64,000 bases of DNA from Oxynema aestuarii AP17 (lineage in GTDB: Bacteria; Cyanobacteriota; Cyanobacteriia; Cyanobacteriales; Laspinemataceae), in NCBI RefSeq assembly GCF_012295525.1, contig NZ_CP051167.1:5877299-5941298 (forward strand), given 5' to 3'. Under the pieces are notes generated by a model that saw nothing but the letters and a program-made list of their open reading frames with translations, ran no database searches and was not told the origin of the DNA. This document shows, piece by piece, positions 2,852 to 31,078 of the stretch. Both the position numbers and the translations under genes were made by a program. Within the stretch, counting starts at the first letter, position 1, and the number at the start of each line of letters is the position of its first letter.

Positions 2852-4411
2852 TTACAGGCGATCGCCCCAATCGGTTTCGGGACGCAGAACGGGGGGTTTA
2901 ATATCGCCGAGTCGTTGACCGCGTTCTAAAGCATATTCGATATACTTCTCCATCGGGCGGGAGACGCAACGGGCGACAGGGGGCGCGAGTTGACCCAGTT
3001 GGCGGGCGTAACGATATTGGGGATTGGTTTGTAAGGCCCGGTCTAAGTCCCGGGCGAGGTCTGCGGCCCGATCGCCCGCCGCCTCGTCCAGAAACAGAAT
3101 ATAATGAGGGCGATCGCGCAAGCACGGGGTCAGCATGGCGAAACCGCCAGGATGCAGGGGCTGCAGTTGCGCCCAGACGAAGGCTTCGGTCAATTTTTCC
3201 CCACACAAGTCGCTGACCAGTCCCGCCCGTCCGATAAATTCCAGTTGGGGCGTTTGTCCGTACCATCCCGTCACTCGCACTCGATCGCCCAAGTCGTAGC
3301 GATACAAACCGCCATCGGTGGTGACGACGACTCGATAGACCCCGCCACTTTCGACCTCGTGGACGAGGCGCGATCGCCCGTCCTCGCCGATAAATTCGTA
3401 AAAGCCGCTCTCTACGGCCAATACGGGCGACGGACACCCGGCGATCGGGATCGTCACTGCTGCCTCGGTTGCCAGCAACCCTTTTCCCTGGATCCACACG
3501 TGAGGAAAAGCCCCTTGCAAGGAACGCACAAAAGCGGCGGCACTGGCATCGGTCCAACAGCTAATCGTATCCAACTGCGGCCACAACTGGCGGGTATCGA
3601 TCGCCCCGGAGGCGAGCGATCGTGACACTAAGTGAGCGCGCTCCGGGTTCGGCGGCAGGGGCGGTAACCCGGGAACGGTGGTTCCCCGCGCCAAATCGCG
3701 CACCAGGCGATCGCCGTTTCCCTCGATTTCGGCGAGCAATTCCAGCAAAAACGTGGGACTCCACACGGAAATTAAGGCCAATTGGGGCGACGCCAGCAAG
3801 TATAAAGCCGTGAGATAGCGCCAGCGATCGATCGCGGCGATCGCGGCAATTTGCGGCGGAACGGCGAGCAACTGCACGATGTGAGGGGCGAGGCGATCGC
3901 CAAAATAGAGGGCGTCATTGCCCGTCGGAAGGGTCACCGGGCCGACAGTCGGGGATTGGGGGCGGGCGATCGGCGAAATCGCCCAATAGGTCGGACCGCA
4001 GGCGATTCCCGGGCGATGTGCGAGCAAATTGGCCAACCAGGGAAACAGCGCCCTCTGAAACGCCGCCAAACTCCCTCGGGTGTAGGGAATCAGCTTACTC
4101 CCGGAGGTACTGCCCCCGGTCACTTCAACGGCGATCGCCTCATCGGCGCACAAAACCCCGGTTTCCCCCGCCGCCATCCGAGCGATCGCCTCGGCGAGGT
4201 CCTCGTAGGTGTGAATCGGGACGCGATCGCGATAGTCCCGGTCGTCGGCGATCGTCCCAAAGCCGTACCGCCGCCCGATTTCAGTGGTTTGGTTGCGGGT
4301 GAGAAGGTCGTGGAGGCGCGATCGTTGCACGGCGATCGCGCGATCGGTTGCGTTCGAGAAATCGACCCAAAACGGATCGCAAGCGTCTCGAATAAATTGC
4401 CAGTTTTTCAC
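2852..4411 (-). CDS. GH3 (auxin-responsive promoter) family adenylate-forming protein
   Basis: 519-aa ORF with the VTGGSTSGSKLIPYT motif typical of the GH3 / acyl-adenylate superfamily, and a YEDLAEAIARMAAGETGVLCADEAIAVEVTGG N-terminal region. Confidence 0.6.
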   Translation of the reverse strand: MKNWQFIRDACDPFWVDFSNATDRAIAVQRSRLHDLLTRNQTTEIGRRYGFGTIADDRDYRDRVPIHTYEDLAEAIARMAAGETGVLCADEAIAVEVTGGSTSGSKLIPYTRGSLAAFQRALFPWLANLLAHRPGIACGPTYWAISPIARPQSPTVGPVTLPTGNDALYFGDRLAPHIVQLLAVPPQIAAIAAIDRWRYLTALYLLASPQLALISVWSPTFLLELLAEIEGNGDRLVRDLARGTTVPGLPPLPPNPERAHLVSRSLASGAIDTRQLWPQLDTISCWTDASAAAFVRSLQGAFPHVWIQGKGLLATEAAVTIPIAGCPSPVLAVESGFYEFIGEDGRSRLVHEVESGGVYRVVVTTDGGLYRYDLGDRVRVTGWYGQTPQLEFIGRAGLVSDLCGEKLTEAFVWAQLQPLHPGGFAMLTPCLRDRPHYILFLDEAAGDRAADLARDLDRALQTNPQYRYARQLGQLAPPVARCVSRPMEKYIEYALERGQRLGDIKPPVLRPETDWGDRL

Positions 4412-4485
4412 CTCGTTAAAATTGATACAACTTCACTTAATCTTTGCAACTATAACAGAGTTTTGTTCTCTCAAAATTCAATCTT

Positions 4486-4965
4486 ATGGCAGGAGTTCTT
4501 AAACTTAAGATTCACGAAAGTGGGGAAGAACTTAAAAATTTACTCGCCAAACAAAGCACGGCGCGCGGTCGAGAACGGATCCAAGCTTTGTATTTACTGA
4601 AAATTGGACAAGTTAAAACCCTCAAAGAATTGGCCATTTTGTTAGGTCGAGATACAGCCACCCTTTATCGCTGGTTTCAAAAATATAAAGCTAAGGGTTT
4701 AGACGGGATGTTAGAAGTTAAAAAAGGTCAAGGTCGCAAACCTGCAATTCCCTCAGAAGTGATGGATTCTTTGCGCGATCGCCTCCAAGAACCGAATGGC
4801 TTTCAAAGTTACGGCGAAGTCAAAACATGGCTGAAAGAAAAATTCGATATCGATGCGTCTTATAAGGTCGTTCACGAAGCCGTTCGCTACAAATTAAAAG
4901 TCAAGCTCAAAACTTCTCGTAAAAGGCGCCGCAAGCGCGATCGAGACGTCCAAAAGCGGGAATAA
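4486..4965 (+). CDS. IS630/Tc1-family transposase N-terminal HTH (orfA-like) protein, orphan with no DDE orfB
   Basis: 159 aa: …RIQALYLLKIGQVKTLKELAILLGRDTATLYRWFQKYKAKGLDGMLEVKKGQGRKPAIPSEV…YGEVKTWLKEKFDIDASYKVVHEAVRYKLKVKLK. This is the typical IS630 orfA HTH, the GL-D-PR-GRP linker and a basic tail. No DDE ORF follows. Confidence 0.6.
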   Translation: MAGVLKLKIHESGEELKNLLAKQSTARGRERIQALYLLKIGQVKTLKELAILLGRDTATLYRWFQKYKAKGLDGMLEVKKGQGRKPAIPSEVMDSLRDRLQEPNGFQSYGEVKTWLKEKFDIDASYKVVHEAVRYKLKVKLKTSRKRRRKRDRDVQKRE

Positions 4966-5060
4966 AGCCCCTCAAAAACGATCGCGTTTTCCAGACGCCC
5001 TCCCTCGTCTGAAAAATTGATTCGAGCTAAAAATAGGAGCAATAGCGGGCGATCGCCCGT

Positions 5061-5819
5061 TTAAAAAACCGACGTTTTTAAGTACGGATCTGCCGATTTC
5101 ATTCCTTCAAGAAATCCGCGTTTCGCGTGCGATCGCATATTCTCTTCGGTCAGTTCCATCAAACACACTAACTCGTCGCCGCGATCGTAATTGGGATTGC
5201 GTTCTAAAAAGTAACGAACGTCCGGTTTTTGTCGATATCCCGGCTTAATCTCCGCCCAAATTCCGCTTAAATGTCCCCGAGATGCCGGAAATTGAACTAA
5301 CCCGGTTTCCCGGCGATAGTTGTCGCCAAATTTTAAGATTGCTAAATAATCCATTAAGTCGCGCATCGCATCGGGGGTGGGAGATCTCCAGGTGGGATAA
5401 AAAGATTTCGCAAATACGGGTAAATAGCGATAGGTTCGATATCCTTTGACGATTAAAAACCAATAAAGCGGTAACTGAGGCAATTCAGCTTTAATTTGAC
5501 CCGCCAAGCGACACCACGCCAGGGGTAAGATTTGCTCTCCCCAGTAGGGGCGATCGATAATTGTATCACCGGAAAACAAAGCGCGTCTCGGTTGGTTTTC
5601 CCACTCGAAATCAATAATTTCTAGGGTGGTAAATCCTCGCAAGACTTGGGAACGATCTAATAAAAGAATGGCGCAGTGTTTGCGTGCTAAATCTTCCCTA
5701 AACAGAGACCAATTGGTGCCGCCGTAGTAGTTTTGATAAAGGTCGTACATTTGCCGACATTGTGCTTCGCAAAAGTCGGATTTGAAAATGACGCGATCGG
5801 TAAGTTTATTCATATTCAA
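5061..5819 (-). CDS. Hypothetical protein, 252 aa, W/Y-rich; no family recognised
   Basis: Clean ORF in a lower-GC region; no recognisable motifs (…PYWGEQILPLAWCRLAGQIKAELPQLPLYWFLIVKGYRTYRYLPVF…). Confidence 0.5.
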   Translation of the reverse strand: MNMNKLTDRVIFKSDFCEAQCRQMYDLYQNYYGGTNWSLFREDLARKHCAILLLDRSQVLRGFTTLEIIDFEWENQPRRALFSGDTIIDRPYWGEQILPLAWCRLAGQIKAELPQLPLYWFLIVKGYRTYRYLPVFAKSFYPTWRSPTPDAMRDLMDYLAILKFGDNYRRETGLVQFPASRGHLSGIWAEIKPGYRQKPDVRYFLERNPNYDRGDELVCLMELTEENMRSHAKRGFLEGMKSADPYLKTSVF

Positions 5820-6797: not shown

Positions 6798-7253
6798 ATG
6801 GCAAAGACCTTAAATTTAGATATCCAAGAAAGTGCCGAAGAACTTAAAGCCCTGCTCAAACAACAAACCAACGCCCAACGTAAAGAAAGAGTCCATGCTT
6901 TATATTTACTCAAATCCAATCAAGTCACCACATTAGAAGAACTCTCGAAACTGCTGGTCAGAGATACCTCAACCATTTATCGCTGGTTTCAAAAATACAA
7001 ACAAGAAGGGTTAGACGGATTGCTCAAGCTCTACGAACCCGCAGGCAGACCGATTACAATTCCCCAAGAAGCTTTAGATAAATTGCGCCTCAAGCTGCAA
7101 GAACCGGAAGCATTCAAAAATTATGGGGAGATTCAAATCTGGCTCAAAGAAGAATGCGGCGTCGAGGTCGATTATCACGTCGTCTATCGCGCCGTCCGCT
7201 ATAAATTTAAAGCCAAATTAAAAAGTTCTAAATCCAGCCGAAAAAAAAAATGA
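6798..7253 (+). CDS. IS630/Tc1-family transposase N-terminal HTH (orfA-like) protein, paralog of 4486..4965, orphan
   Basis: 151 aa, collinear with the 4486 ORF at roughly half identical positions (…ALYLLKSNQVTTLEELSKLLVRDTSTIYRWFQKYKQEGLDGLL…AGRPITIPQEA…YGEIQIWLKEE…VVYRAVRYKFKAKLK). No DDE ORF downstream. Confidence 0.6.
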   Translation: MAKTLNLDIQESAEELKALLKQQTNAQRKERVHALYLLKSNQVTTLEELSKLLVRDTSTIYRWFQKYKQEGLDGLLKLYEPAGRPITIPQEALDKLRLKLQEPEAFKNYGEIQIWLKEECGVEVDYHVVYRAVRYKFKAKLKSSKSSRKKK

Positions 7254-7359
7254 TCGCCGGGTTAGTTTAATAAAATAAACCGTCAGTCATCATCTTTGAG
7301 ATTGGATTGACAACCTATCGCCATTCCCATCTAGCGAATAGAGGAAGTTTACGATCGAA

Positions 7360-8247
7360 ATGTCTCAATTTATCAAAGGGGGGCAAGTCGCCTGGTTTCA
7401 CGACGAAGGACATCCCGCCGGAATCTTTCATACTTACGACCAGTTTAGCGGCATCGACGGGAGCGATCGCCCGCGCAAAATCCATATTTTCTTACCCCGA
7501 AACTACGAAACCAGCGAAGATCGCTATCCGGTGGTTTACATGAACGACGGTCATACCGCCTTTTTCCGGGCCGGATTGGCGCGTCAGTCCTGGCAAGTCG
7601 CCGAACGGTTGGGGGAATTGTACGATCGCGGTGCGATTCCGAAACTGCTCGTCGTCGCCGTGCATCCACTCGACCGCGATCGTGAGTATACACCCGATAT
7701 TACTCCCAGTCTCGAACCCTCCGGGTTGGAAACCTACGCACCCTATTTAGTCAATTCCGTCAAAGGATTTGTCGATCGCCACTACCGCACCCGACCGGAA
7801 AACTCACAAACGACCGTGGTAGGGGCGGGACGGGCCGGACTAGCCGCCTTTTACATCGCCTGTCGCTACGGCGATCGCATCGGCAATGGGGCGGCGATGT
7901 CCCCCTCATTTTTCGTCGGTTTGGAGCGCGACGAAGACCTGTTTACCTCCCTGTCGCGATCGCCCCTGCTCAAACTGACCGGATCGGCGTTGGCCGATCG
8001 CGCCCGTCGTCCCCGTCTGTGGCTGGATTGGGGCTTAGTCCGCGACGGCACGGATCACAACAGCGCCATCGAACGGCAGACGACCAAGCGCGGGCGAGAA
8101 ATGGCCGAGTTGTTGCAGTATAAATACGGCTATCTCCGCGATCGTGACTTATTCGTGCGGGAAGATCCCGAGGGAGAACATTGCGAGGCGTCGTGGTCGC
8201 GACGGTTTCCCGAAATGTTAAAAGCCTTCTACGAAAAGTCTCACTAA
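7360..8247 (+). CDS. Esterase-family (PF00756-like, enterochelin/siderophore-esterase-like alpha/beta hydrolase) protein; the nucleophile motif may be degenerate
   Basis: 295 aa; …IHIFLPRNYETSEDRYPVVYMNDGHTAF…LLVVAVHP… The expected GxSxG position reads GAGRAG. Confidence 0.5.
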   Translation: MSQFIKGGQVAWFHDEGHPAGIFHTYDQFSGIDGSDRPRKIHIFLPRNYETSEDRYPVVYMNDGHTAFFRAGLARQSWQVAERLGELYDRGAIPKLLVVAVHPLDRDREYTPDITPSLEPSGLETYAPYLVNSVKGFVDRHYRTRPENSQTTVVGAGRAGLAAFYIACRYGDRIGNGAAMSPSFFVGLERDEDLFTSLSRSPLLKLTGSALADRARRPRLWLDWGLVRDGTDHNSAIERQTTKRGREMAELLQYKYGYLRDRDLFVREDPEGEHCEASWSRRFPEMLKAFYEKSH

Positions 8248-8383
8248 ATATTAATCTTGGGGTGTGTCTACTTCCCCATTCAAGCCAACCGGGGACGAGG
8301 GGGCCGGGAACGATCGCATTTTGTCGTATACTACAAGACCTAGCGATCGCCTATCCGCTTTTCGACTGCTATCGTCCTTGCCC

Positions 8384-9562
8384 ATGATGCCCAACGATCC
8401 CTATATTTGGATAGACCGCGCCCTCGATGCCATTCACCGGGCGAATTGGTATCGATCGCCGCAAGCGATTAGCGCCCCCGGGGCCGTGGTGGAAATTCAA
8501 GGGCAACGGCTGCTCAATTTCGCCAGTAACGATTATTTAGGCTTGGCAGGCGATCGCCGTTTGGTAGAAGCCGCCGTCGCCGCCACCCGCACCTACGGAA
8601 CCGGAACCACCGGATCGCGCCTGATTACCGGACATCGACCCCTGCATCGGGAACTGGAACGGGCGATCGCCGATCTCAAGCAGACCGAAGATGCCTTAGT
8701 GTTCAGTTCCGGCTACTTGGCCAATCTCGGCACGATCGCCGCGTTAGTCGGCAAACGAGATTTAATCCTCGGCGATCGCTACAATCACTCCAGCCTCAAA
8801 AATGGGGCGATTCTCAGTGGGGCCACGGCGATCGATTATCCTCACGCCGAGCTGCCAGCCTTGCGCGAGCTGCTCTCACAACATCGAGACCAATATCGGC
8901 GCTGTTTGCTGGTCACCGACAGTATTTTTAGTATGGATGGGGATTTGGCGCCCCTGCCCGCCTTACTCGACCTCGCCGACGAGTTTAGCTGCATGTTGCT
9001 GGTAGACGAAGCCCACGCCACCGGGGTTTTAGGGGCAACGGGAGCCGGGGCGATCGAAGCGTGCGGCGGTCGGGAACGCCCCTCGATCCAAATGGGAACG
9101 TTGAGTAAAGCCCTCGGCAGTTTGGGGGGCTACGTGGCGGGTTCGCGTCAGGCGATCGACTTTTTGCGAAACCGCGCGCCGACCTGGATTTATACAACTG
9201 GCCTCTCCCCCGCAGATACGGCGGCGGCGATCGCCGCGATCGCGATCGTGCGCGACGAACCCGAACGGCGGGCCCGACTGTGGCAGAATGTCGCATCTCT
9301 CAAACAGGGACTGGAACGGGCCGGAATCGAAGGGGTGTTACCGTCCGATTCGCCGATTATTTGCATCCAGATGCGCGACGCCGCCACCGTTCTTGAAGCC
9401 GGACGACTGCTCAAAAAAGCGGGGATTTTAGTCGCTGCGGTGCGCCCCCCGACCGTACCGACCAGCCGCCTGCGCCTCACCGTGATGGCGAGTCACACTC
9501 CCGAACAGTGCGCGGCGCTGGTTGACCGCCTCAAAGGGTTGAAAGAACGGGGATTGGGGTGA
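8384..9562 (+). CDS. bioF: 8-amino-7-oxononanoate synthase (PLP-dependent)
   Basis: Class-II aminotransferase-like: [19 protein letters not shown], and the PLP-lysine motif [16 protein letters not shown]. The ORF-track ORF starts at 8264, but the likely start is MMPNDP (~8384), giving about 393 aa. Confidence 0.8.
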
Positions 9563-10779
9563 ATGGGGAGTGGGCGATCGCCCCGGGGCTAAAGGTCGAG
9601 CGCCAATTTATCCGGATTGAAGTCGAGATCGCGCTTAAGATCGTGATTAAATCCTCACAGCCATTAACAACCGTGAAATTCATTCAAAGTTTAGCGATCG
9701 CCCTGAGTCTGGCGATTTCCCTCGGCGGTCCCGTTCCCCAGGTGGGCGCCACTTTACCCGTCGGCGCGATCGCCCAAACCAGCGCCGGAGATTTCTTAGA
9801 AAGCGCGATCGAAAAGCTCGACCGTCGCGCTTACCAGGAGGCGATCGCCGATTTGGACAAGGCGATCGAACTCGATCCCGATTTAGTCTCGGCTTATGCG
9901 GCGCGCGGGATTGCCAAACATCACCTGCGAGATTTTGGCGGGGCGATCGCCGATTTTAGCGAAGTGCTAGAACGCAATCCCAGCGATGCTGAAATGCTGA
10001 CCCTGCGAGGGATTGACTATCTTTATCTGGGGGATTACGACCGGGCGATCGCCGACTTCGACCGGGCGATCGAGAGCGATGGCGAACAGGCAGATATCTA
10101 CATGCTGCGCGCCGACGCGCGATCGCAGAAACTGGCGCTGGAACAGGCCCCGGCGCAACGCTACGATGTCGTCATCGCCGATTACGACCGCGCGATCGCC
10201 CTCGACGGCGACAATCCCCGTTACTATCAGCGACGGGGACAAACTCGGGCTCGCTTGCGACAATCGGAAGCGGCGATCGCCGATTATACCCGGGCGATCG
10301 AGCTGCAACCGACCAACGCCAACCTCTACGTGTTGCGCGGTAACGCTTACGACGATGCAGCCAACTGGCAAAACGCCCTCGAAGACTATACCCGGGCGAT
10401 CGAACTCAATCCCGATTTAGGGGATGCGTATTACAATCGCGGCGTCGCTTACCGTCGCCTCAACCAGTGCGATCGGGCGATCGCCGACTATAGCAAAGCA
10501 CTCCAACTCGACCCCGACGATTTCGGCGCCTACCTCAATCGAGGGGTATGCCACGCCAGCATCAACCAACTCGATCGCGCGATCGCCGATTACAACCGGG
10601 CGATCGAACGAAATCCCAACCTCGGCGAAGCCTATTATAACCGCGCCCTCGCCCAACAGCAGCTCAACCAAATCGAAGCCGCCCGCGCCGACTTTGAAAA
10701 AGCCGCCGATCTTTATCAACAACAAGGACAAGAAACAAAACTGCGCGACGTGCTCAACGCCCTTCGTAACTTGCCCTAG
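9559..10779 (+). CDS. TPR-repeat protein, probably exported
   Basis: About 10 TPR units ([30 protein letters not shown]…, [29 protein letters not shown]…) with a hydrophobic N-terminal segment ([16 protein letters not shown]). Its ATG overlaps the bioF stop (GTGAATGG). Confidence 0.7.
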
Positions 10780-11035
10780 CCCTCGATCGCCTCTCGTCAG
10801 AACCCTTTTAAAAGTAACAGCAACTAACCGATCTATCTCCTATTCTTTCTGGTTGGCTATTCTCCTACAGCCGGGATTAAAATCAATAGGAATAGATTTG
10901 CATGTTCGTCGAATCAATTCTTCTGACTTCTGCTAAAATGAAATATGCTATGACATTGTAAACATCACATGAAACAAAAATCATCATAATTTCCACCATA
11001 ATTCAAATCTTAGCATTGATAATATCTCGTCGTGG

Positions 11036-12124
11036 TTGACAATGAAAAGAATTACCTTTGCAGATATTTTTGCTGGAATAGGAGGGTTTAGAATTGGCCT
11101 AGAGCGCTTGGGCTTTGAATGCCTTTATTCTTGTGAAAAAAACGAAGCTTGTCGGCAAGTTTACTTTGACAATTTTGGTGACTTGCCAGAAATGGATATC
11201 TCCGATATTGATTTTTCTAAAATTCCAGATGTCAATATTATAACGGCTGGGTTTCCCTGTCAACCCTTTAGTATTTGTGGAAAAAGAAAAGGATTTTCCG
11301 ATCGACGAGGCACTATTTTTTTCCATCTGTGTAATCTCTTACAAGCCAAAAAGCCGGATGTAGCAATTCTTGAAAATGTCAAACACTTGCTTCATTTAGA
11401 AAAAGGATCTGTTTTTGAAGAAATCATTACTACTCTGGAAGATTTAGATTACTTCGTTCGCTATAGTTTACTCAATGCCAAAGATTTTGGACTCCCTCAA
11501 AATAGGGAACGTGTTTTTATTGTCGCCTCCAAGCATAAGCCATTTAATTTTTCACGAATTAAACCAAAATTAAAGATTCCACAGCTTAAAGAATTCTTGT
11601 CAAAAACCGGAGACTTTCAATATATTGATGACTCTGAATATACTCTAATTAAGCATCCAAAACAACAAGATTCAGGATTGATCTTTGTTGGTTATCGTAA
11701 TAAAAGTATTTGGAAAAAAGGCATTCGTCCCCATACCGAACACTTATCTCGCGTTCACCGACAACCCAACCGAATTTATTCCGTGGAAGGGGTACATCCT
11801 ACTTTACCTTCACAAGAATCCTCCGGACGGTTTTTTATTTACTTACCAGAAGAGAATCGGGTACGTAAGCTAACCATTGAAGAATGTTATCGGATTATGG
11901 GGTTTCCAAAATCCTTTAAAAGAAATGCTAGTTTAAGTGAAGCCTATAAACAAATTGGAAACTCAGTGGCAACGAATGTTATTTATGAGTTAGGAAAAGA
12001 AATAATGGAACAAAAACTAACGGTTCCATGCTCAAAATTTAATAATAGAGCTCGAGGTTTTAAAAAATCAGAAAAACCGATTCAGCTTACGATACCAGGC
12101 TTGCGGTTAACTCACTGCAATTAA
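11036..12124 (+). CDS. DNA (cytosine-5)-methyltransferase, orphan (no adjacent REase or Vsr)
   Basis: Motif I FADIFAGIGGFRIG, motif IV GFPCQPFS, ENVKHLL, and C-terminal QIGNSVA. Lies in an AT-rich, HIP1-free island. Confidence 0.85.
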   Translation: MTMKRITFADIFAGIGGFRIGLERLGFECLYSCEKNEACRQVYFDNFGDLPEMDISDIDFSKIPDVNIITAGFPCQPFSICGKRKGFSDRRGTIFFHLCNLLQAKKPDVAILENVKHLLHLEKGSVFEEIITTLEDLDYFVRYSLLNAKDFGLPQNRERVFIVASKHKPFNFSRIKPKLKIPQLKEFLSKTGDFQYIDDSEYTLIKHPKQQDSGLIFVGYRNKSIWKKGIRPHTEHLSRVHRQPNRIYSVEGVHPTLPSQESSGRFFIYLPEENRVRKLTIEECYRIMGFPKSFKRNASLSEAYKQIGNSVATNVIYELGKEIMEQKLTVPCSKFNNRARGFKKSEKPIQLTIPGLRLTHCN

Positions 12125-12324
12125 AAAGTGCATGATTTTCGATCGTAAAAATATACGTAAAAATATAGAGATTTGAGGATCGTGGGCATTGCCCACCCTA
12201 CTTGTTTTGTTTTGTCTTAAGTTATAAGAAATTGGTGATTTTAGAACGTCGATCGCCAGTCATACCGAGGATTGACTGTTTTAGCGTTGAGGAGGCTGTT
12301 GCAGAGTTGATAACTCATCCATAA

Positions 12325-13722
12325 TTGCAAACTTGCGCTAGCGTAGAAAATGCAATTTCATGCGATCGCGAACTGTCCGTGTTTGAAAAGAACTGCTCGA
12401 TCCGACTCCTGACTTTACTGGGACTGCTACTTTCGCTCACCGCCTGCGCGAACACGCCGGGTTCCAAACAGTTAGAAGACTCCCTCGCCCCCGATCCCAA
12501 ACTGAAAGACAACCCCGAATTGCTCGGAGGTTCTACGCCGTCGCCCTCTCCCGGGGCCACTCCAACTCAACTCCCGGAAGATTTTCCGAGGGAAATTCCG
12601 CAATATAACAACGCCGAATTGCAAAGTGTCAGCCGCAGCACTTCGGAACGATCGTCGCCACAAACTGAGGAAACGCCTAGGGTAACGACCCTTTGGGAAA
12701 CGGGCGATCGCGGCGATCGCGTCCGGCAATTCTATCAAACCCATTTTGAAGAAAACCAGTGGGAAATTCTGCCGACACCTGCCACAGAAACCCAAGGCGA
12801 TCGCTCCGTGAGTGCGCGCAAAGATAACTTGCAAGTCACAGTGGAGATCGTCAGCCAACCGAGCGACACCCCCACCGAATTTAGCCTCACTTACGAGCTT
12901 GAGAGCGCCACCAGTACCGCTAAAACACCGGAAACCTCAAAAAGCTCGACAACAACTGAAAAGGCCACAGAGACAACATTAGAGACAATTACCGAACCCT
13001 TGCGCCCTTACGTGAGCGACTTGCAACAACTCGGGATCCTGTCCCTGAAAGCGACATCCAGCGACGCCGACGCCGACGCGTGGAATCAGGCGATCGCCCG
13101 AGCCCAATATGCCGAATGGCTGATCGCTGCCAACAATCGCTTTTTCGACAACCAACCGAGCAAACAAATTCGCCTCGCCACTCCCAGTACCCAACCTGCC
13201 TTTCAAGATGTTCCCGCCACCCATCCGCAATTTGCGGCGATTCAGGGATTGGCGGATGCGGGAATTATCCCGAGTTCGCTCACCGGAGAGAATACGGCGG
13301 TTAACTTCCGTCCGGACGCCCCATTATCGCGCGAAGATGCGATCGCCTGGAAAGTCCCCCTCGATTTTCGCCAAGGATTACCTAAAGCATCGGTAGAAGC
13401 GGTGCGAGAAGCGTGGGGGTTTCAAGATGTCCCGAAAGTCGATCCGGCGATTCTCCCGGCGATTTTGGCAGACTATCAAAATGGAGAATTATCGAACATC
13501 CGGCGCGCTTTCGGTTACACCCGTATTTTCCAACCGAAAAAAGAAGTAACGCGGGCGGAAGCGGCGGCGACCTTGTGGTATTTTGGCGATCGCAACGAGG
13601 GTTTATCCGCCACAGATGTTGTCAACCGTCAGCCGACCCCTCAAGCTAATCCCCAGACGGGCGATCGCACCAATGTTCGATCCTCCGAACCGCCAACCAC
13701 TCCAGAAAATCAAGAAAATTAA
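12325..13722 (+). CDS. Lipoprotein with C-terminal SLH (S-layer homology) domains
   Basis: Lipobox LLSLTAC; Pro/Thr/Ser-rich linker; SLH-like FQDVPATHPQFAAIQGLADAGIIP and FQDVPKVDPAILPAILADYQNGEL…RAEAAATLW. The true start may be internal. Confidence 0.6.
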   Translation: MQTCASVENAISCDRELSVFEKNCSIRLLTLLGLLLSLTACANTPGSKQLEDSLAPDPKLKDNPELLGGSTPSPSPGATPTQLPEDFPREIPQYNNAELQSVSRSTSERSSPQTEETPRVTTLWETGDRGDRVRQFYQTHFEENQWEILPTPATETQGDRSVSARKDNLQVTVEIVSQPSDTPTEFSLTYELESATSTAKTPETSKSSTTTEKATETTLETITEPLRPYVSDLQQLGILSLKATSSDADADAWNQAIARAQYAEWLIAANNRFFDNQPSKQIRLATPSTQPAFQDVPATHPQFAAIQGLADAGIIPSSLTGENTAVNFRPDAPLSREDAIAWKVPLDFRQGLPKASVEAVREAWGFQDVPKVDPAILPAILADYQNGELSNIRRAFGYTRIFQPKKEVTRAEAAATLWYFGDRNEGLSATDVVNRQPTPQANPQTGDRTNVRSSEPPTTPENQEN

Positions 13723-13770
13723 GCGATACTCGATCGGGTCGTTGATGAGGTCGTTGATGAGGTTCAAGGC

Positions 13771-14397
13771 GTGAATAAATGGCTGAATAAATGTCTGAAA
13801 ATTTGGCCGTTGCACCGTCAAAAAACGTGGCTGCTGTTGGCGATCGCCCTCCTGGCGATTCTCCTCGGCTATATTCCCCTTCGTTTGGCAATCACTCAAG
13901 TTCGAGTCAGCCAACCGCAAGCCATTTTTGTATTGGGTGGACATTACCGACGCATGACATTTGCCGCCGAATTTTGGCAGTCCCATCGCGATCTCGAGAT
14001 TTGGTTATCGGGAGTGACGCCGAAACCGTCTTTACAGAGAGTTTTTGCGAAAGCGAACATCCCCGATCGCGTCATCCATTACGAGCAATGTGCGACCGAT
14101 ACAGTGACTAATTTTACTTGCAATGTCGATCGCTTCGCTCGCGATAAGATGTGGCGAGTTTATCTGATTACTTCCGACTATCACATGCGGCGATCGCGCG
14201 CGATTGCGACCTTCATTTTCGGCAGTCGCGGCATCATTGCCACCCCGATCGTCGTTTCACACCAATCCCCAAAACCCCGAGAATCGATCTGGAAAGTCCT
14301 ACGCGATTGCGTGCGATCGATCCTCTGGTTGTTCACCGGGCGATCGGGAGCGAGTTTGAATCCAGATTTATCAAGAGAAATTACCATCAAAAGTTAA
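13771..14397 (+). CDS. DUF218 (YdcF/SanA/ElyC-like) family membrane-anchored protein
   Basis: N-terminal TM segment; DUF218 pattern IFVLGG…IWLSG…ATDTVTNF…YLITSDYHMRRSRAIA. Confidence 0.6.
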   Translation: MNKWLNKCLKIWPLHRQKTWLLLAIALLAILLGYIPLRLAITQVRVSQPQAIFVLGGHYRRMTFAAEFWQSHRDLEIWLSGVTPKPSLQRVFAKANIPDRVIHYEQCATDTVTNFTCNVDRFARDKMWRVYLITSDYHMRRSRAIATFIFGSRGIIATPIVVSHQSPKPRESIWKVLRDCVRSILWLFTGRSGASLNPDLSREITIKS

Positions 14398-14462
14398 CCG
14401 TTAAAATTCATAACCCGAGCATTACTTTCTAAATCTAAGAGACTGTTTGTAAAACCAATCTA

Positions 14463-14519
14463 GTAGGGGTTAGGTTACCAAACTCCTACTTCTCTAGAGT
14501 TTGGTGACCCAACCCCTAC
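14463..14519. repeat. Long near-perfect hairpin with a 23-bp stem (gtaggggttaggttaccaaactc / gagtttggtgacccaacccctac)
   Basis: Inverted repeat read directly; one mismatch and one G-U pair; 11-nt loop. No T-run follows. Confidence 0.7.
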
Positions 14520-14660
14520 AAGACACAATAGACTGTTGAGAGCGTTCGGATAACGCGATGGTAGCCACGTGTCGTTTGATGCTCCGGCGATTGCCGCCTC
14601 TCAAACCGGGCTGTTGATGTTTATTTTATAAACAGTCTCTAAAAGCTAAAATCTAAAATC

Positions 14661-15698
14661 ATGACCCACGATCGCCTATTCCAGCTCATTGAAGAACTCG
14701 TCTTGCATCACTCTCCCAGTGGGGTCGAAACCGAAATCGATAACTTACTCCTGCGCCGTTTTCAAGCATTAGGTTTAGACACGTGGCTGGATGAAGCAGG
14801 AAACGCGATCGCCAAAATACCCGGTCGAAATCCGCAACGGGCGATCGCCATTACGGGACATAAAGACGAAATTGGGGCGATCGTCAAAAGTCTCGGACCC
14901 GACGGACGCCTCGAAGTTCGCAAACTTGGCGGAACCTTTCCTTGGGTTTACGGCGAAGGGGTCGTCGATATTTTAGGCGATCGCCAAACCCTCAGTGGTA
15001 TTCTCAGCTTCGGATCCCGTCACATTTCCCACGAATCGCCCCAAAAAGCCCTCCAACAAGACATTGCCCTCCGTTGGGAAGATGCTTGGGTCGAAACCAA
15101 ATGCACCGCCGCCGAGTTACACGCCGCCGGGGTTCGTCCCGGAACCCGCGTCGTCGTCGGGAAACACCGCAAACGCCCGATCCGCCTCAAAGACTACATC
15201 GCCAGCTACACCCTCGATAACAAAGCCTCCGTCGCCATCCTCTTGCAACTCGCCGAACGAGTCAAACATCCCCCCGTCGATCTCTACTTAGTCGCCTCCG
15301 CCAAAGAAGAAGTCGGCGCCCTCGGCGCCCTATATTTCACCAATCGCCATCGCCTAGACGCCCTCATCGCCCTCGAAATTTGTCCCCTCGCCCCGGAATA
15401 TCCCATCGAAGACGGCGACGCCCCAGTGTTGCTGTCCCAAGACGGTTACGGCATTTACGACGAAGGCTTAAACGCCGAAATTCGCGCCGCCGCCGATCGC
15501 GCCGCCATTCCCCTACAATTGGCTGCGATTAGTGGTTTTGGCAGCGATGGATCCATCGCCATGAAATTCGGTCACGTCGCCCGCGCCGCCTGTCTGTCCT
15601 TCCCCACTCAAAACACCCACGGCTACGAAATCGCTCACCTCGGGGCGATCGCCCATTGCACTCGCATCCTCGAAAGCTGGTGCGAAACCGCCTCTTAA
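14661..15698 (+). CDS. M42 family (FrvX/glutamyl aminopeptidase-like) metallopeptidase
   Basis: 345 aa; N-terminal LIEELVLHHSPSGVETEI…AGNAIAKIPG; metal-ligand region ITGHKDEIGAIV; typical M42 length. Confidence 0.65.
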   Translation: MTHDRLFQLIEELVLHHSPSGVETEIDNLLLRRFQALGLDTWLDEAGNAIAKIPGRNPQRAIAITGHKDEIGAIVKSLGPDGRLEVRKLGGTFPWVYGEGVVDILGDRQTLSGILSFGSRHISHESPQKALQQDIALRWEDAWVETKCTAAELHAAGVRPGTRVVVGKHRKRPIRLKDYIASYTLDNKASVAILLQLAERVKHPPVDLYLVASAKEEVGALGALYFTNRHRLDALIALEICPLAPEYPIEDGDAPVLLSQDGYGIYDEGLNAEIRAAADRAAIPLQLAAISGFGSDGSIAMKFGHVARAACLSFPTQNTHGYEIAHLGAIAHCTRILESWCETAS

Positions 15699-15794
15699 TT
15701 TGGCATTCACCCAGCTAGAACGCTTAAAATCCTTGTCCGGCCTAGCTTTGAGCGAAGCGAACCCAAAAAATTCAAAAAAATTCCCGCTCGGGTG

Positions 15795-15800
15795 TTGACA
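15795..15800 (+). promoter_or_regulatory. Consensus -35 hexamer TTGACA upstream of tRNA-Glu copy 1; the spacer holds the perfect palindrome CTGAATtttATTCAG
   Basis: TTGACA about 45 nt upstream of the tRNA 5' end; the -10 candidate TACCTT is weak. Confidence 0.35.
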
Positions 15801-15844
15801 ACTGAATTTTATTCAGTTACCTTAACAAAGGTGCTGAAACACAA

Positions 15845-15917
15845 GCCCCCATCGTCTAGAGGCCTAGGACACCTCCCTTTCACGGAGGCGACGGGGATTC
15901 GAATTCCCCTGGGGGTA
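15845..15917 (+). tRNA. tRNA-Glu (anticodon UUC), 73 nt, CCA not encoded
   Basis: GCCCCCATCGTCTAGAGGCCTAGGACACCTCCCTTTCACGGAGGCGACGGGGATTCGAATTCCCCTGGGGGTA: 7-bp acceptor stem, D-loop TCTAGAGGCC, anticodon loop CTTTCAC, T-arm GGGGATTCGAATTCCCC. Confidence 0.92.
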
Positions 15918-15940
15918 CTTGAAACATTTCAGCATCGCTA

Positions 15941-15970
15941 AAGGCGCTTCCCACCGGGAGCGCCTTTTTC
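15941..15970 (+). terminator. Rho-independent terminator after tRNA-Glu copy 1
   Basis: AGGCGCTTCCC acc GGGAGCGCCT followed by TTTTTC. Confidence 0.6.
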
Positions 15971-16021
15971 AGTGGGGATCCAATCAAAAATCCCAATCCT
16001 AAAAAAAAGCAAAAAAAAGTT

Positions 16022-16027
16022 TTGACA
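16022..16027 (+). promoter_or_regulatory. Consensus -35 hexamer TTGACA upstream of tRNA-Glu copy 2
   Basis: TTGACA about 44 nt upstream of the tRNA; the -10 candidates TAGTGT / TAAAAG are weak. Confidence 0.3.
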
Positions 16028-16070
16028 TTTCCGAAATTTTCCGTTAGTGTAAAAGACGTGGCAAAGACAG

Positions 16071-16143
16071 GCCCCCATCGTCTAGAGGCCTAGGACACCT
16101 CCCTTTCACGGAGGCGACGGGGATTCGAATTCCCCTGGGGGTA
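16071..16143 (+). tRNA. tRNA-Glu (anticodon UUC), second identical copy
   Basis: The 73 nt are identical to 15845..15917. Confidence 0.92.
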
Positions 16144-16157
16144 CTAAGCCACAAAAA

Positions 16158-16202
16158 GAAGACATCCAGTTTTGGGTGTCTTCTTTTTTTCTTCTTTTTT
16201 TT
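16158..16202. terminator. Strong bidirectional rho-independent terminator between tRNA-Glu copy 2 (+) and rtcB (-)
   Basis: GAAGACAtccagttttgggTGTCTTC followed by TTTTTTTCTTCTTTTTTTTT on the + strand, with an A-rich run upstream for the minus strand. Confidence 0.7.
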
Positions 16203-16231
16203 GGAAGGAGAAAGCAGGAGGTCTCCCAGCT

Positions 16232-17413
16232 TCAGCCTTTCACGCACAACACCTGTTTGAGAGTGGCGACGACTTCGACTAAATCGGACTGCTGGGCCAT
16301 GACCCGATCGATGGGCTTGTAGGCGCCGGGAATTTCATCGATGACGCCTTTATCTTTACGACATTCTACCCCGTCGGTTTGAGCAACGAGATCGTCGAGG
16401 GTGAAAGATTTTTTCGCTTTGCTGCGCGACATCAGGCGTCCGGCGCCGTGGGAACAAGAGCAGTAACTTTCGGCATTACCTTTCCCTTTAACGATGTAAG
16501 ATTTCGCCCCCATCGAACCGGGAATAATACCGTAGTCGTTTTCTCGGGCGCGTACGGCGCCTTTTCGGGTGACGTAGACTTCGCGATCGAAATGAACCTC
16601 TTTCTCGGCGTAGTTGTGGTGACAGTTAACCACGAGTTTCGGTTGGAGGGGTTTGCCACCAGCGACCTGTTGTTCGACAATCCGCTTGAGGCGGTCCATC
16701 ATTACTTTGCGGTTGAAGCGGGCGTAATCTTGCGCCCACTGCAAATCGCGCCAGTAGGCGTCAAACTCGGGAGTCTTGGCGACGAAGTAAGCCAAATCGC
16801 GATCGGGAAGCTCGATCTGAGCTAATTTCGCTAGCTCTTTGGCGGTATCGATATGATATTGGGCGAGCATGTTGCCGATATGACGGGAACCGGAGTGCAA
16901 CATTAACCAAACGTTGTTGTCTTCGTCGAGACAGATTTCGATGAAGTGGTTACCGCCGCCGAGGCTTCCCATTTGTTTGAGGGCTTTACCTTCGAGACGG
17001 GCGACGCCGCGATGTAGATCTTTGAATTGGCGCCATCCCATCCAATTGGTCACGGAGGTTTCGACGTTTTTGTTTTCGTTGAAGCCGACGGGAATCGCGG
17101 CTTCGATCTGTTGGCGAATGGTTTTGAGTTTGCCGTCGAGACGATCGCCTGTAAACGGCATTTGTAGTGCCATCATGCCACAACCGATATCGACGCCGAC
17201 GGCGGCGGGAATCAAGGCTTCTTCCGTAGCGATGACGGAACCGACCAGGGCGCCTTTACCGAGGTGAACGTCGGGCATGAGGGCGACGTGTTTGAAGACG
17301 AAGGGTAAGGAGGCCACATTTTGGGCCATTTTCGATTCGAGATCGCCGAGTTGGTGTCCGGCCCAGGAGAGAACCGGACTGGGGGTTTTTAAGTTGAGGG
17401 TTTCGTAAGACAT
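16232..17413 (-). CDS. rtcB: RNA-splicing ligase RtcB
   Basis: 393 aa; RtcB signatures: VGVDIGCGM, GGGNHFIEI, NCHHNYA, and the C-terminal SCSHGAGR with catalytic His. Confidence 0.85.
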   Translation of the reverse strand: MSYETLNLKTPSPVLSWAGHQLGDLESKMAQNVASLPFVFKHVALMPDVHLGKGALVGSVIATEEALIPAAVGVDIGCGMMALQMPFTGDRLDGKLKTIRQQIEAAIPVGFNENKNVETSVTNWMGWRQFKDLHRGVARLEGKALKQMGSLGGGNHFIEICLDEDNNVWLMLHSGSRHIGNMLAQYHIDTAKELAKLAQIELPDRDLAYFVAKTPEFDAYWRDLQWAQDYARFNRKVMMDRLKRIVEQQVAGGKPLQPKLVVNCHHNYAEKEVHFDREVYVTRKGAVRARENDYGIIPGSMGAKSYIVKGKGNAESYCSCSHGAGRLMSRSKAKKSFTLDDLVAQTDGVECRKDKGVIDEIPGAYKPIDRVMAQQSDLVEVVATLKQVLCVKG

Positions 17414-17706
17414 GAGAACGGTGGAGAGTTGAGATTTTAGATTTTAGATTTTCTATGGTTGGGGTGGGCTTGGCGCGATCGCTCATTCACCGTGAGGACG
17501 ATCTCATCACAGCCTCGATAAGGTTTATAGGTGATTTTACTCCCTTAGAATTTAGGCCGATCGCCGCCCGCGTCCGCGACTATTTTTGTAGTTTTTCATC
17601 ATTTAAATTATCCAGGTCACATTAATACTACATTTATAATACACGATTCATACAAAAAGAGCCATCCGATCGCCGTGCGATCGCCAATGGCTCCACAATC
17701 GAGGAT

Positions 17707-17750
17707 CTAAAATCTAAAATCTAAAATCTAAAATCTAAAATCTAAAATTC
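17707..17750. repeat. Heptamer tandem array (AAAATCT)x6, STRR-like; an inverted partial array (AGATTTT)x3 lies at ~17427..17448
   Basis: Read directly from the sequence. Confidence 0.85.
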
Positions 17751-17764
17751 CCACAACTCCTCCC

Positions 17765-18409
17765 TCACTGGCGATCGAGCCAAATGGCGTGCAGTCCCGC
17801 CGCTTTAGCCCCTTCGTAATCTTCTTTATAACTATCGCCGATATGCCATGCCCGTTCGGGCTGACAGTCGTGTTTGCTCAACGCCACCTCGAAAATTTGG
17901 CGATCGGGCTTGGCGGCGCCGACTTCCGTGGACAGAGTAACCGAGGTAAAGAAATCGTCTAAATCGAGGGCTTGGAGGACGCGATAAAGCCGGGAGTCAA
18001 AATTAGAGAGAATCCCGAATTGAGTAGAACTTCCTTTCAAGCGTTCTAAAGTCCGGGGAACGTCGGGATAGACGAACCAGGGTTCAGCCGTAGCGAAATA
18101 AGCGAAAAGTTGCTTGAAAAACTCTTGAAAATTAGAAAATTGCTCGAACGCACCGATACGCTGAAACGTCGTCATCGAAATCGCTTCCCACCATTCAAAC
18201 TCTAACTGGGGAATTTGGCTGGGTTCGGCGTCGGGAAAAGCGGGGGGAGTCGAGGCGCGGAAACTTTCGGTAAAAGCGCGATCCAGGCGCTGGGAATCGA
18301 CGGTAACGCCGTAATCGCGGGCTAAACGGGCGTAAGTTTCGCCGACAGTCCCGCGAACGGCAAACAGGGTACCGACGGCATCGAAAAAAATAACTTGAGG
18401 CGCGTCCAT
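17765..18409 (-). CDS. HAD-superfamily hydrolase
   Basis: N-terminal FFDAVGTLF (motif I DxVGT); C-terminal WHIGDSYKEDYEGAKAAG (motif IV). Confidence 0.7.
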   Translation of the reverse strand: MDAPQVIFFDAVGTLFAVRGTVGETYARLARDYGVTVDSQRLDRAFTESFRASTPPAFPDAEPSQIPQLEFEWWEAISMTTFQRIGAFEQFSNFQEFFKQLFAYFATAEPWFVYPDVPRTLERLKGSSTQFGILSNFDSRLYRVLQALDLDDFFTSVTLSTEVGAAKPDRQIFEVALSKHDCQPERAWHIGDSYKEDYEGAKAAGLHAIWLDRQ

Positions 18410-18455
18410 GGGTCAGTTGTGAGAAATCAAAAAGGGGCGAATAGGGAGGAACAGA

Positions 18456-19679
18456 TTAATCGAGAGAAGAAACCGTGGCGCGGGTTTTAGCGATCGCCTC
18501 GCGCAGAGGTTGGGTCATCCAATTAAACGCAACTTTGAGCTGGTGGTCGAGGGTGGGTAAGCGATAGAGATACGCCAAACGACGGAAAACCACTGCCGCC
18601 TGACCGTCGATTTTGACTCCCAATCCGGTTAAGGTAGCGTTTTCGAGTCCTAACGTCATCATTTCGCCGAGATTTTGATATTTAAACGGCAGTAGGGGGC
18701 GATCGCTCATCGAAGCCCAGACATTCCACGCCACATAATCCGCTTGTTGGATCGCCACTTGCGCCGTGGCGGGGACGCTTTGACCGCTTGCGTCGTGACC
18801 GTCAGCCAGATCGCCGAGGGCAAAAATCTCCGGGCGATCGATCGCCTGTAACTCAGGAGTGACGCGCACTTGACCCCGTTGATTTTTCGCCAAATCCAGA
18901 GCGGCGATCGCCGGGGCTACCTTCGTGCCTACCGTCCACAAGACCACATCCACCGGGATTTCGTCGAGTTTACCTTTGTAGAGTAACGAAATCGTTTGCG
19001 GTCCGATCGCCTCGACCGTCGTTTCTAAATCGATCCAGATCCCGCGTTCGTCGAGGGCAGCTTTAGCCGTATTGCGGTTAAACTCCGTCGCCGCATTGAG
19101 AATGCGATCGCCTTGTTCTACCAGGCGCAAGCGACCCCGTTCGCCGAGGCGATCGGCCAATTTGCACGCCAATTCAACCCCACTGTACCCCGCGCCGACG
19201 ACCGCCACCCGAATTTTATCTTTCTCCGACGCTTCCAACAGGCGCAACCGTTCTTCGAGGCGGTACGCATCGTCAATCGTGCGAAACGGCAAAGCATATT
19301 CGCGACTACCGGGAACGAGATCCACCGGAGTTTCGCCGCCTAATGCCAGAACGAGGCGATCGTAAGGTAACTCGACATCTTCGAGGAGGCGAACGCGGCG
19401 ATTGTCCAGATCGATTCCCGCGACTGTCCCCTGATGAAAGTGCACGTTGGTATGGGACAGCAGTTCCGAAAACGGGGGCGCAATTTCCCAGGTTTGCAAT
19501 TCCCCAGAAATTAATTCGTACAGCAACGGGGCAAACAAAAACCGATCTCGACTGTCGATGAGAACGATCTCGGGTTTGTCCGATGGACTCCAAGGAAGCT
19601 GATGCAGGCGCAAAGCCGAGTATAACCCGCCAAAGCCCCCTCCCAGGATACAAATTCGCCGCGTAGTCTCTTGGGTCAT
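18456..19679 (-). CDS. ndbA: Type II NADH dehydrogenase (NDH-2, FAD/NAD(P)-binding oxidoreductase)
   Basis: RICILGGGFGGLY (dinucleotide-binding) and a second GxGxxG, VAVVGAGYSGVE. Likely start MTQETTRRICILGGG (internal to the 18456..19790 track ORF). Confidence 0.7.
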   Translation of the reverse strand: MTQETTRRICILGGGFGGLYSALRLHQLPWSPSDKPEIVLIDSRDRFLFAPLLYELISGELQTWEIAPPFSELLSHTNVHFHQGTVAGIDLDNRRVRLLEDVELPYDRLVLALGGETPVDLVPGSREYALPFRTIDDAYRLEERLRLLEASEKDKIRVAVVGAGYSGVELACKLADRLGERGRLRLVEQGDRILNAATEFNRNTAKAALDERGIWIDLETTVEAIGPQTISLLYKGKLDEIPVDVVLWTVGTKVAPAIAALDLAKNQRGQVRVTPELQAIDRPEIFALGDLADGHDASGQSVPATAQVAIQQADYVAWNVWASMSDRPLLPFKYQNLGEMMTLGLENATLTGLGVKIDGQAAVVFRRLAYLYRLPTLDHQLKVAFNWMTQPLREAIAKTRATVSSLD

Positions 19680-19983
19680 AATTACGTCACAAAGCCTTGC
19701 CAGCACGATCGTCTCTTCCAAGATAGCAGGGCGATCGCTACCCGTAGGGCTGGAGTAAAAGGAGGGTTGGAGAGGGGGCGATCGCCTCATCCGACCCCAA
19801 CGGCGAGCCCAACCTAGAGCAAATTTGGGATTTGACTCGCACCCGTTCGGAGGATCCCCCGAAAAATGCCCTCCACGAAGCTGATGCTGGCAATTGTGCC
19901 CATTCAGTGAAAATCGAGCCGTCTAAAGTGGAACGCTCGTGCCAAAATAAGGGTGTTATTTTTGCCCATTCTTAATTTACAAG

Positions 19984-21012: not shown

Positions 21013-21239
21013 GATCGATCGTCCAGACCGAACCGACGCGATTGGCCAGGATAAGTTTTAACTCGGGCTAGGACTCGGACTTATCCCGGCGATCGCCCGG
21101 CGTAGGGAGTAGAATATCGTTCGGCGATCGGTCAACCCCTTAAGAATTCTTCACTCCTCTCTCCCTCTACTTCTTAGCTTGCTGTGGAGGCGGGCAAGAT
21201 GTCCGCCCCACGGATTTCTCAGTCCTGATTTTCCCCCTC

Positions 21240-21938
21240 ATGAGTAATAGCCATTTGATTATCTTGGGCCTCCTGTTATTGTTTGCGATCGCCCATAGCG
21301 GTTTAGCCGCCTTACGCCCAAAAGGAGAAAAGATCCTCGGTCCGAGACTGTACCGGATTGGCTTTGCTTTAGTCAGTTTGCCCCTCGCGGTTATCTTAAT
21401 TATCTATTTCTTCAATCACCGTTACGACGGCGTGCAGTTGTGGCAATTGCAAGGAGTTCCGGCGGTCCAACCGATCGTTTGGATTTTATCGGCGATTTCC
21501 TTTTTCTTCCTCTATCCGGCGACCTTCAACCTCCTCGAAATTGCTGCCGTCGCCAAACCCGAAGTTCACCTTTACGAAACCGGGATCGTCAGAATTTGCC
21601 GACATCCGCAAATGGTCGGTCAGGTGATTTGGTGTATTGCTCATACCTTATGGATCGGTAGTAGTTTTACCCTAGTCACCTCCTTGGGATTGGTACTACA
21701 TCACCTGTTCGGCGTCTGGCACGGCGATCGCCGCCTGGGCGCCCGCTACGGCGAAGCCTTTGAAGCGGTCAAAGCGCGTACCTCGATCGTCCCCTTTTTA
21801 GCGATCGCCCAAGGACGGCAAACCTTAGAGTGGAAAGAATTCATCCGTCCCGCCTATCTCGGCGTCACCGGGTTTATCGCCTTACTTTGGTGGGCCCATC
21901 CCCTGTTACTACGAGCGACCGCCAGCGTTCCCTGGTAA
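21240..21938 (+). CDS. NnrU-family (Z-ISO-like) integral membrane protein
   Basis: Polytopic protein; TGIVRICRHPQMVGQ matches the NnrU TGIYR.TRHP motif. Confidence 0.65.
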   Translation: MSNSHLIILGLLLLFAIAHSGLAALRPKGEKILGPRLYRIGFALVSLPLAVILIIYFFNHRYDGVQLWQLQGVPAVQPIVWILSAISFFFLYPATFNLLEIAAVAKPEVHLYETGIVRICRHPQMVGQVIWCIAHTLWIGSSFTLVTSLGLVLHHLFGVWHGDRRLGARYGEAFEAVKARTSIVPFLAIAQGRQTLEWKEFIRPAYLGVTGFIALLWWAHPLLLRATASVPW

Positions 21939-31015: not shown

Positions 31016-31078
31016 TTGCTTGAAATATCTTTCCTGTAAATTGGCTATAAATTCGGATTTGGGGAGTTATTTAAAACA

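Follow-up and report, generated by a model that had tools for sequence, protein, structure and literature searches.

EcoT38I and SacI are type IIP restriction-modification (R-M) systems, of which the first recognises GRGCYC and the second GAGCTC. Both words are subsets of GDGCHC, the site of Bsp1286I (PMC3459991). It is well established that R-M systems decay to solitary methylases and that restriction sites are avoided. Direct repeats are known to flank R-M units above chance frequency (PMC2853133). In cyanobacteria, the CGATCG methylases are common and widely conserved orphan enzymes (PMC4390886).

Here we analyse a stretch of 64,000 nucleotides from the cyanobacterium Oxynema aestuarii AP17, hereafter called the window, in which a short AT-rich block between a TPR gene and an SLH gene carries a solitary C5 cytosine methylase (M). 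A first-pass annotation, made from the letters of the window, had read this block as the recent acquisition of an orphan methylase, possibly with an epigenetic role. We propose instead, at a probability of roughly 0.85 as judged from sequence comparison, that the block arrived by horizontal transfer as a small type II R-M island, which then lost its restriction gene (R). Loci of other genomes and contigs used for comparison are designated by L numbers.

Results

Composition and boundaries of the AT-rich block

The GC content of the block is 0.3625 at 10790-12320 and 0.361 at 10800-12320 as compared to 0.527 for the whole window, and the lowest-GC 1.5-kb stretch of the window starts at 10801 (GC 0.359, z = -3.8). 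The estimate made by eye in the first-pass annotation, below 40%, thus corresponds to a computed value of about 36% against 52.7%. The sole real open reading frame (ORF) of the block, at 11042-12124 (+), has a GC3 of 0.27 against 0.55-0.66 in six neighbouring high-GC genes. A GC content or codon usage matching that of the genome, which had been named in advance as the result that would speak against acquisition, is not what we observe in the comparison with the window, and the view of the block as foreign DNA is upheld by its composition. The octamer HIP1 (GCGATCGC) is, as first noticed, absent from the block and more widely from 10579-12362, although this 1783-bp gap is weak evidence: it ranks second among 185 HIP1 gaps, seven gaps in the window exceed 1.5 kb, and a Poisson model expects about one of 1783-bp size. 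The strong signal is the composition.

HIP1 also occurs in the window at an exact spacing of 102 bp, with 13 consecutive copies at 784-2015 and runs at 9841-10586 inside the TPR gene (9559-10779). Each of the corresponding 34-residue repeats encodes AIA(D) from GCGATCGCC, and part of the local HIP1 density is therefore carried by protein repeats. A second low-GC stretch, at 30600-32500 (0.40-0.42 across about 2 kb), is associated with an ORF without Pfam match (29474-31015) and an ORF with a Phenol_MetA_deg-like domain (31079-31864), and could likewise have been acquired.

The left edge of the block is marked by a 9-bp sequence, TCGATCGCC, at 10783-10791 (+), 4 nt past the TPR stop codon (10777-10779). 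It is followed by an AT-rich segment without ORF of note (10792-11041, +), presumed to be the promoter region of the methylase gene, in which a -35/-10-like match at 11016-11043 is weak. Beyond the methylase gene lie a 92-bp filler (12125-12216, +), the AT-rich right end of the island (12217-12248, +) and a second, direct copy of TCGATCGCC at 12249-12257 (+), the GC content climbing from 12249 onward. The same direct repeat brackets the AT-rich DNA in the sister species represented by Oxynema sp. CENA135. An empty site would be expected to read ...CCCTCGATCGCCAGTCATACC... across the TPR-SLH junction. Insertion at the 9-bp repeat is only suggested, because a repeat match of at least 9 bp at equal spacing arises at 1.6% of control positions in this HIP1-rich genome and no empty TPR-SLH site was found when the flanking SLH protein was scanned in genome and metagenome contigs, which yielded 37-38% relatives without synteny. 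Around the island, terminal inverted repeats or a transposon structure were represented by just short, low-identity pairs, and the non-coding flanks of the island had no homology with other loci of the methylase family except a 23-nt hairpin-like match in L009. Elsewhere in the window, an 83-bp direct repeat (15837-15919 and 16063-16145, about 97.6% identity, 226 bp apart) lies intergenically, between the genes for the M42 peptidase and RtcB.

No phage, integrase or transposase gene was found inside the 1.5-kb block or inside the corresponding 2.6-kb island of CENA135, and the flanks of the methylase gene, 256 bp upstream and 200 bp downstream, are too short to encode a Vsr or a transposase. 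The lack of an adjoining restriction endonuclease, Vsr or mobility gene, as initially reported, thus holds for the flanks in this genome. The nearest mobility-like ORF, at 6798-7253 (+), lies 3.5 kb off with three high-GC genes between. Together with 4486-4965 (+) it forms a set of two diverged HTH_32/HTH_23 ORFs (151-159 aa, about 66% nucleotide identity) of a type seen in transposase N-termini. Both are kept in CENA135, the GC content of the second copy is 41%, and neither adjoins the methylase island.

The methyltransferase

The ORF at 11042-12124 (+) encodes an intact C5 cytosine DNA methyltransferase of 360 aa, identified by Pfam and TIGRFAM profiles and by its motifs. We place its start at the ATG at 11042, the TTG at 11036 being a mechanical start. 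PF00145 is matched over profile positions 2-323/324 (E 2.6e-82, 277.3 bits against a cut-off of 22) and TIGR00675 with an E-value of 1.5e-79 (268 bits against a cut-off of 100.65). All on the + strand and in canonical order, the enzyme contains motif I FAGIGG (aa 10-15; 11069-11086), motif IV GFPCQPFS with its PCQ (aa 70-77; 11249-11272), motif VI ILENV (aa 109-113; 11366-11380), motif VIII QNRERVF (aa 153-159; 11498-11518), motif IX RKLTIEECYRIMGFP (aa 275-289; 11864-11908) and motif X IGNSV (aa 305-309; 11954-11968). The variable, target-recognition region spans about 11525-11863 and a conserved C-terminal tail contains QLTIPGL at 12083-12103. The full-length PF00145 match and the complete set of motifs agree with the methylase having been called complete from the start. 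Its description as Dcm-type is loose: with the profile of the E. coli Dcm subfamily (NF007772) it scores 113.7 bits, where the cut-off is 710.

Among proteins of solved structure, M.HhaI is the closest (E 1.9e-61, 41% identity). Homologues number in the thousands, and the best 120, at 56-73% identity, come almost exclusively from cyanobacteria, among them Baaleninema, Jaaginema, Geitlerinema, Spirulina, Nostoc, Microcoleus and others, with contig P0001/L007 at 96%. No exact-sequence database record was found for the window methylase in either its 362-aa or its 360-aa form.

The window methylase differs from the copy in CENA135, which is accompanied by R, at 12 amino acids, none of them in catalytic motifs. 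The G136D change is specific to the window and affects a residue at which 89% of the family has G. Such a change, combined with the disappearance of the partner and hence of the original function, is what might be seen in a dead gene drifting to loss. We nevertheless regard this as unlikely: the ORF retains its full length and every motif, M.HhaI too carries D at the residue aligned with position 136, the gene differs from that of the close relative L014 by 3 nucleotides, its dN/dS against the more distant L007 is 0.078, and the allele lacking R is conserved in four independent assemblies. The 3 differences from L014 are too few for a selection test, and the dN/dS of 0.078 is no proof of selection during the orphan period, because the history separating the window from L007 is mosaic and includes R+ ancestry. 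The methylase is presumably still active.

The partner endonuclease family

Some homologues of the methylase are 500-584 aa long and read into a second domain, and in-frame M-R fusions occur in several cyanobacteria. In Jaaginema the partner is a separate gene of 369 aa which starts 3 nt past the methylase stop. The partner family comprises 2781 homologues, some of them named "restriction endonuclease, SacI family" by NCBI, and D248...E263-x-K265 is invariant across an alignment of 50 of its members. The AlphaFold model of the partner has a pLDDT of 90, and the partner has both the core fold and the D...(D/E)xK motif of a PD-(D/E)XK nuclease. Because the partner adjoins or is fused to the methylase and has a nuclease motif, we consider the methylase family to supply the modification enzyme of a type II R-M module. 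The attribution of the partner to the EcoT38I/SacI type was made by fold comparison alone: searches of PADLOC, NCBIfam and PDB sequences for a name were without result, and against the Pfam profile RE_SacI (PF09566, cut-off 19.3) the partners of Jaaginema (22.5 bits), Flavobacterium (20.3) and Capnocytophaga (19.1) are all marginal, while for CENA135 the profile search gave no match and a weak precomputed match is on record.

On a plasmid of Staphylococcus epidermidis, this type of methylase and its nuclease domain are joined in one protein of 706 aa, whose variable region is 72% identical to that of the window methylase. In this plasmid (NZ_CP093209.1, L021) the fusion ORF, at 3001-5121, lies between two IS257 copies and beside blaZ. 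The M-R module is, by this arrangement, evidently mobile in Firmicutes as a one-gene R-M fusion. Such a mobile homologue flanked by IS257, the low GC of the block and the transposase-type HTH ORF upstream could all be reconciled with an anti-restriction methylase derived from a phage or a plasmid and left by a decayed mobile element. We consider this origin very improbable, as no relative was found in IMG/VR, the best phage matches reach at most 37.5% identity with a variable region that has no phage match, and neither the block nor the CENA135 island contains a gene of the phage, integrase or transposase kind.

A cognate endonuclease for the methylase was not found within the 64-kb window. 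The check for a degraded endonuclease in the flanks, proposed at the outset, was carried out by tblastn (best E 1.3) and by searching the six-frame translation with a profile HMM of 113 partner endonucleases, which gave negative scores only; neither detected a remnant of R in the window. An endonuclease beside M, as in a complete type II R-M system, is thus missing from the window and present at the CENA135 locus.

The orthologous locus of Oxynema sp. CENA135

The SLH protein next to the block is 95% identical to a homologue from Oxynema sp. CENA135 (O. mangrovii). There the gene order (L019/L020) is HTH, esterase, BioF, TPR, M (360 aa), R (376 aa), SLH, DUF218, M42 peptidase and RtcB, and is syntenic with the window apart from R. 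The alignment of L019 3793-8657 with window 7270-12124 (95.4% identity) stops exactly at the methylase stop codon; it includes the upstream segment, which is about 95% identical with roughly 14 mismatches in a 286-column alignment. Homology restarts at 12217 and extends over L019 9893-20318 and window 12217-22656 (95.6% identity). Between these points, 1235 bp of CENA135 containing the entire endonuclease gene (L019 8673-9803, about 15 nt 3' of M) are set against 92 unrelated bases in the window (12125-12216). The left and right junctions of the island are identical in the two genomes, and in CENA135 the GC content is 0.35 for M and 0.30 for R. The average nucleotide identity of O. aestuarii AP17 and CENA135, published as 95.78% (PMC12895190), equals the identity measured here. 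The filler contains a 12-bp duplication, CGTAAAAATATA in tandem at 12144-12167, followed by a G+C-rich terminator-like hairpin (GTGGGCATTGCCCAC, 12182-12196) and a T-rich run. Compared to shuffled sequences, the RNA structure of the filler has no extra stability (z -0.27).

The finding of a cognate endonuclease in the flanks had been put forward as the result that would overturn acquisition as an orphan. It applies in part: no such gene exists in this window, and one is present at the orthologous locus of CENA135, where M stands with an intact R, so that the claim of an acquisition as orphan does not hold. It is true that the window has no endonuclease remnant, that the composition of the block is strongly foreign and that its gene is intact, all of which would suit a lone methyltransferase gene that arrived recently and on its own, never had a partner at this site and perhaps has an epigenetic role. 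Against it stand the M and intact R bordered by identical left and right junctions at the orthologous site, the sharing of the island by lineages about 4.5% apart, the equally low GC of M and R, and a family in which M nearly always comes with R; we give this account very little credence. It is highly probable that the block is an R-M relic from which R was deleted.

As to the direction of events, we infer a loss of R rather than a gain. Formally, M and the filler could be ancestral and R could have been gained later in CENA135, a reading against which the family-wide adjacency of M and R and the shared low GC of the two genes both argue. The loss of R first is the tolerated order, because M without R is viable and R without M is not.

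Distribution of the allele lacking R

The island lacking R is also found in L014 (a 6.3-Mb contig) and L015, which were reached via RtcB and each share about 99.5% identity with the window, and in L007, a 95% relative, making four independent assemblies with the window. Over its 92 positions the filler shows no difference in L007, L014 or L015. In L014 we also noted a cross-match (4357-4759 to window 37728-37349) which points to two copies of an approximately 400-bp segment in the window, at about 23050-23460 and 37349-37728, with about 86% identity and in opposite orientation.

L007, a short metagenome contig that is possibly chimeric, has flanking segments nearly identical to those of the R+ CENA135 and about 5% different from the window, with a filler and surroundings identical to the window. 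In a three-way comparison, the window equals CENA135 and L007 deviates at 11000-11300, whereas at 11600-11900 and 12350-13100 L007 equals CENA135 and the window deviates. This pattern suggests recombination among Oxynema lineages, possibly with transfer of the R-less allele. That methylase and filler constitute a polymorphism passing between Oxynema lineages by homologous recombination is an idea we advance tentatively and hold to be improbable, albeit conceivable. If true, it would mean that a population disarms restriction by allele replacement and keeps the methylase as a "vaccine" against its R+ kin. Left of the methylase promoter, positions 1-269 of L007 match neither the window nor CENA135 and end in a truncated ORF (...LIDDFYIPCLAKATLYRRAVGFFSSS...) which may resemble the N-terminus of a helicase/PLD-type defence protein. 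This segment reflects an assembly chimera or else DNA rearranged where the island begins on its left side.

Among the family loci compared, R is intact in Jaaginema and CENA135. It has lost about 200 codons in frame in L001, L002 and L004, is frameshifted in L005 and is cut off before its catalytic half in L006, while both Geitlerinema sp. FC II (L008) and the window lack it. R thus decays repeatedly in this family while M is retained. The GC content of M lies below that of the host in 7 of the 7 loci measured (0.31-0.40 versus 0.40-0.53). Low GC is hence a property of the family and does not date the transfer. As the junctions are identical in lineages about 4.5% diverged, the entry of the island predates the split of these lineages, and the recent acquisition suggested at first is not supported.

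Predicted specificity of the methylase

In the window, each of the nine words covered by GDGCHC was observed 1-3.5 times, where 17-21 were expected from composition. Their total was 20 as compared to 167 expected from composition and 60 under a Markov model (z -5.2), and GDGCHC ranks second in depletion among 160 degenerate palindromes tested. For the remaining seven GNGCNC words, which have C in second or G in fifth position, the total was 148 for a composition expectation of 141. Since the nine words are depleted and the seven others are not, GDGCHC is the predicted target rather than CGATCG or HIP1. Five other carrier genomes, picked solely for carrying a methylase of this family, together have 2 GDGCHC sites against 123 expected in 78.7 kb, and about 59 of the remaining GNGCNC words against 85 expected. 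In a small set of three control loci not picked via the methylase (39.6 kb), 21 GDGCHC sites were observed against 51 expected. GAGCTC alone, with 3 copies in the window against 6.1 under the Markov model, is not decisive, and words containing GCGC, the site of M.HhaI, are not avoided in the window.

The avoidance of GDGCHC agrees with the EcoT38I/SacI-type fold match of the partner. We therefore assign to the methylase, with moderate confidence, a GDGCHC specificity of the Bsp1286I/SduI/NspII type. No paper tying this methylase family to GDGCHC was found in the literature. Site avoidance is correlative and could owe something to further restriction systems of these genomes. CMGCKG, the NspBII/MspA1I site, is the most depleted of the 160 palindromes in the window (0 observed against 77 from composition and 42 under the Markov model), and CTCGAG, TTCGAA, GTCGAC, CCGCGG, GCCGGC and GGCC are likewise strongly depleted; these palindromes suggest that this genome has, or once had, several restriction systems.

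The first-pass annotation had raised a link between the methylase and CGATCG within HIP1. The window does hold 420 copies of CGATCG, against 17 expected from composition, and 186 copies of HIP1, and orphan CGATCG methylases are common in cyanobacteria (PMC4390886), as would befit a HIP1-related housekeeping enzyme like M.Ssp6803I/DmtC. Such an enzyme would hardly be expected in an AT-rich, island-borne gene that is not native, from a family paired or fused with an EcoT38I/SacI-like endonuclease, or in carriers where it is GDGCHC that is avoided and CGATCG that is hugely over-represented. Given the type of the partner and the words avoided, the HIP1 link finds no support, and we regard a CGATCG specificity as exceedingly unlikely.

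Discussion

The scenario that we favour, acquisition of a complete R-M island followed by loss of R, would unfold as follows. An AT-rich unit of M and a PD-(D/E)XK endonuclease would have entered the TPR-SLH spacer of an Oxynema ancestor once, before the divergence of the lineages of the window and CENA135. In the window lineage, the 1235 bp with the endonuclease gene would then have been swapped for 92 bp bearing the terminator-like hairpin. The remaining intact methylase would no longer be part of a defence or addiction module, would most likely still modify the inner cytosine of GDGCHC sites, and by this methylation could keep the chromosome immune to isospecific enzymes of related strains.

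What is new here is limited to the R+/R- pair of sister genomes, the possible recombinational spread of the R-less allele and the testable assignment of GDGCHC to an M-R family that is widespread in cyanobacteria. The locus offers a clean and datable case for the origin of an orphan methylase, with the full pair and M alone at the same site in sister cyanobacteria. It predicts that DNA of the window strain carries m5C in GDGCHC and resists Bsp1286I, SduI and SacI, and that strains like CENA135 restrict unmethylated GDGCHC sites, which would be relevant to the transformation or methylome typing of Oxynema and its relatives. If the assignment is true, this family would supply the gene for the classical cyanobacterial GDGCHC (NspII-type) activity.

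Among known systems, the locus resembles the type IIP systems EcoT38I (GRGCYC) and SacI (GAGCTC) by the fold of its partner family and, by the predicted specificity of its methylase, Bsp1286I/SduI/NspII (GDGCHC). The partner endonuclease shares only 12% identity with EcoT38I across 181 aligned residues, and this window, unlike the EcoT38I and SacI systems, has no endonuclease. M.HhaI has the same motif order and size class, with 47% identity over motifs I-VIII and 53% over motifs IX-X, but only 26% in the variable target-recognition region. The methylase of the window further differs from it by a shorter recognition loop 1 and by a conserved tail of about 35 aa linking to the endonuclease gene. 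As an m5C methylase that stands alone in these 64 kb and was retained after the loss of restriction, it resembles the orphan methylases derived from decayed R-M systems. In contrast to E. coli Dcm/Vsr, it has no Vsr partner and falls outside the Dcm subfamily, and in contrast to Dcm and general orphan methylases it is not a core gene, the R+ allele persisting in the sister species. With M.Ssp6803I/DmtC (CGATCG) and DmtA (GATC) it has in common its solitary position and a cyanobacterial host rich in HIP1 (PMC4390886), whereas it differs from these DNA methylases in being island-borne and AT-rich, in belonging to an endonuclease-paired family and in having a predicted target unrelated to HIP1.
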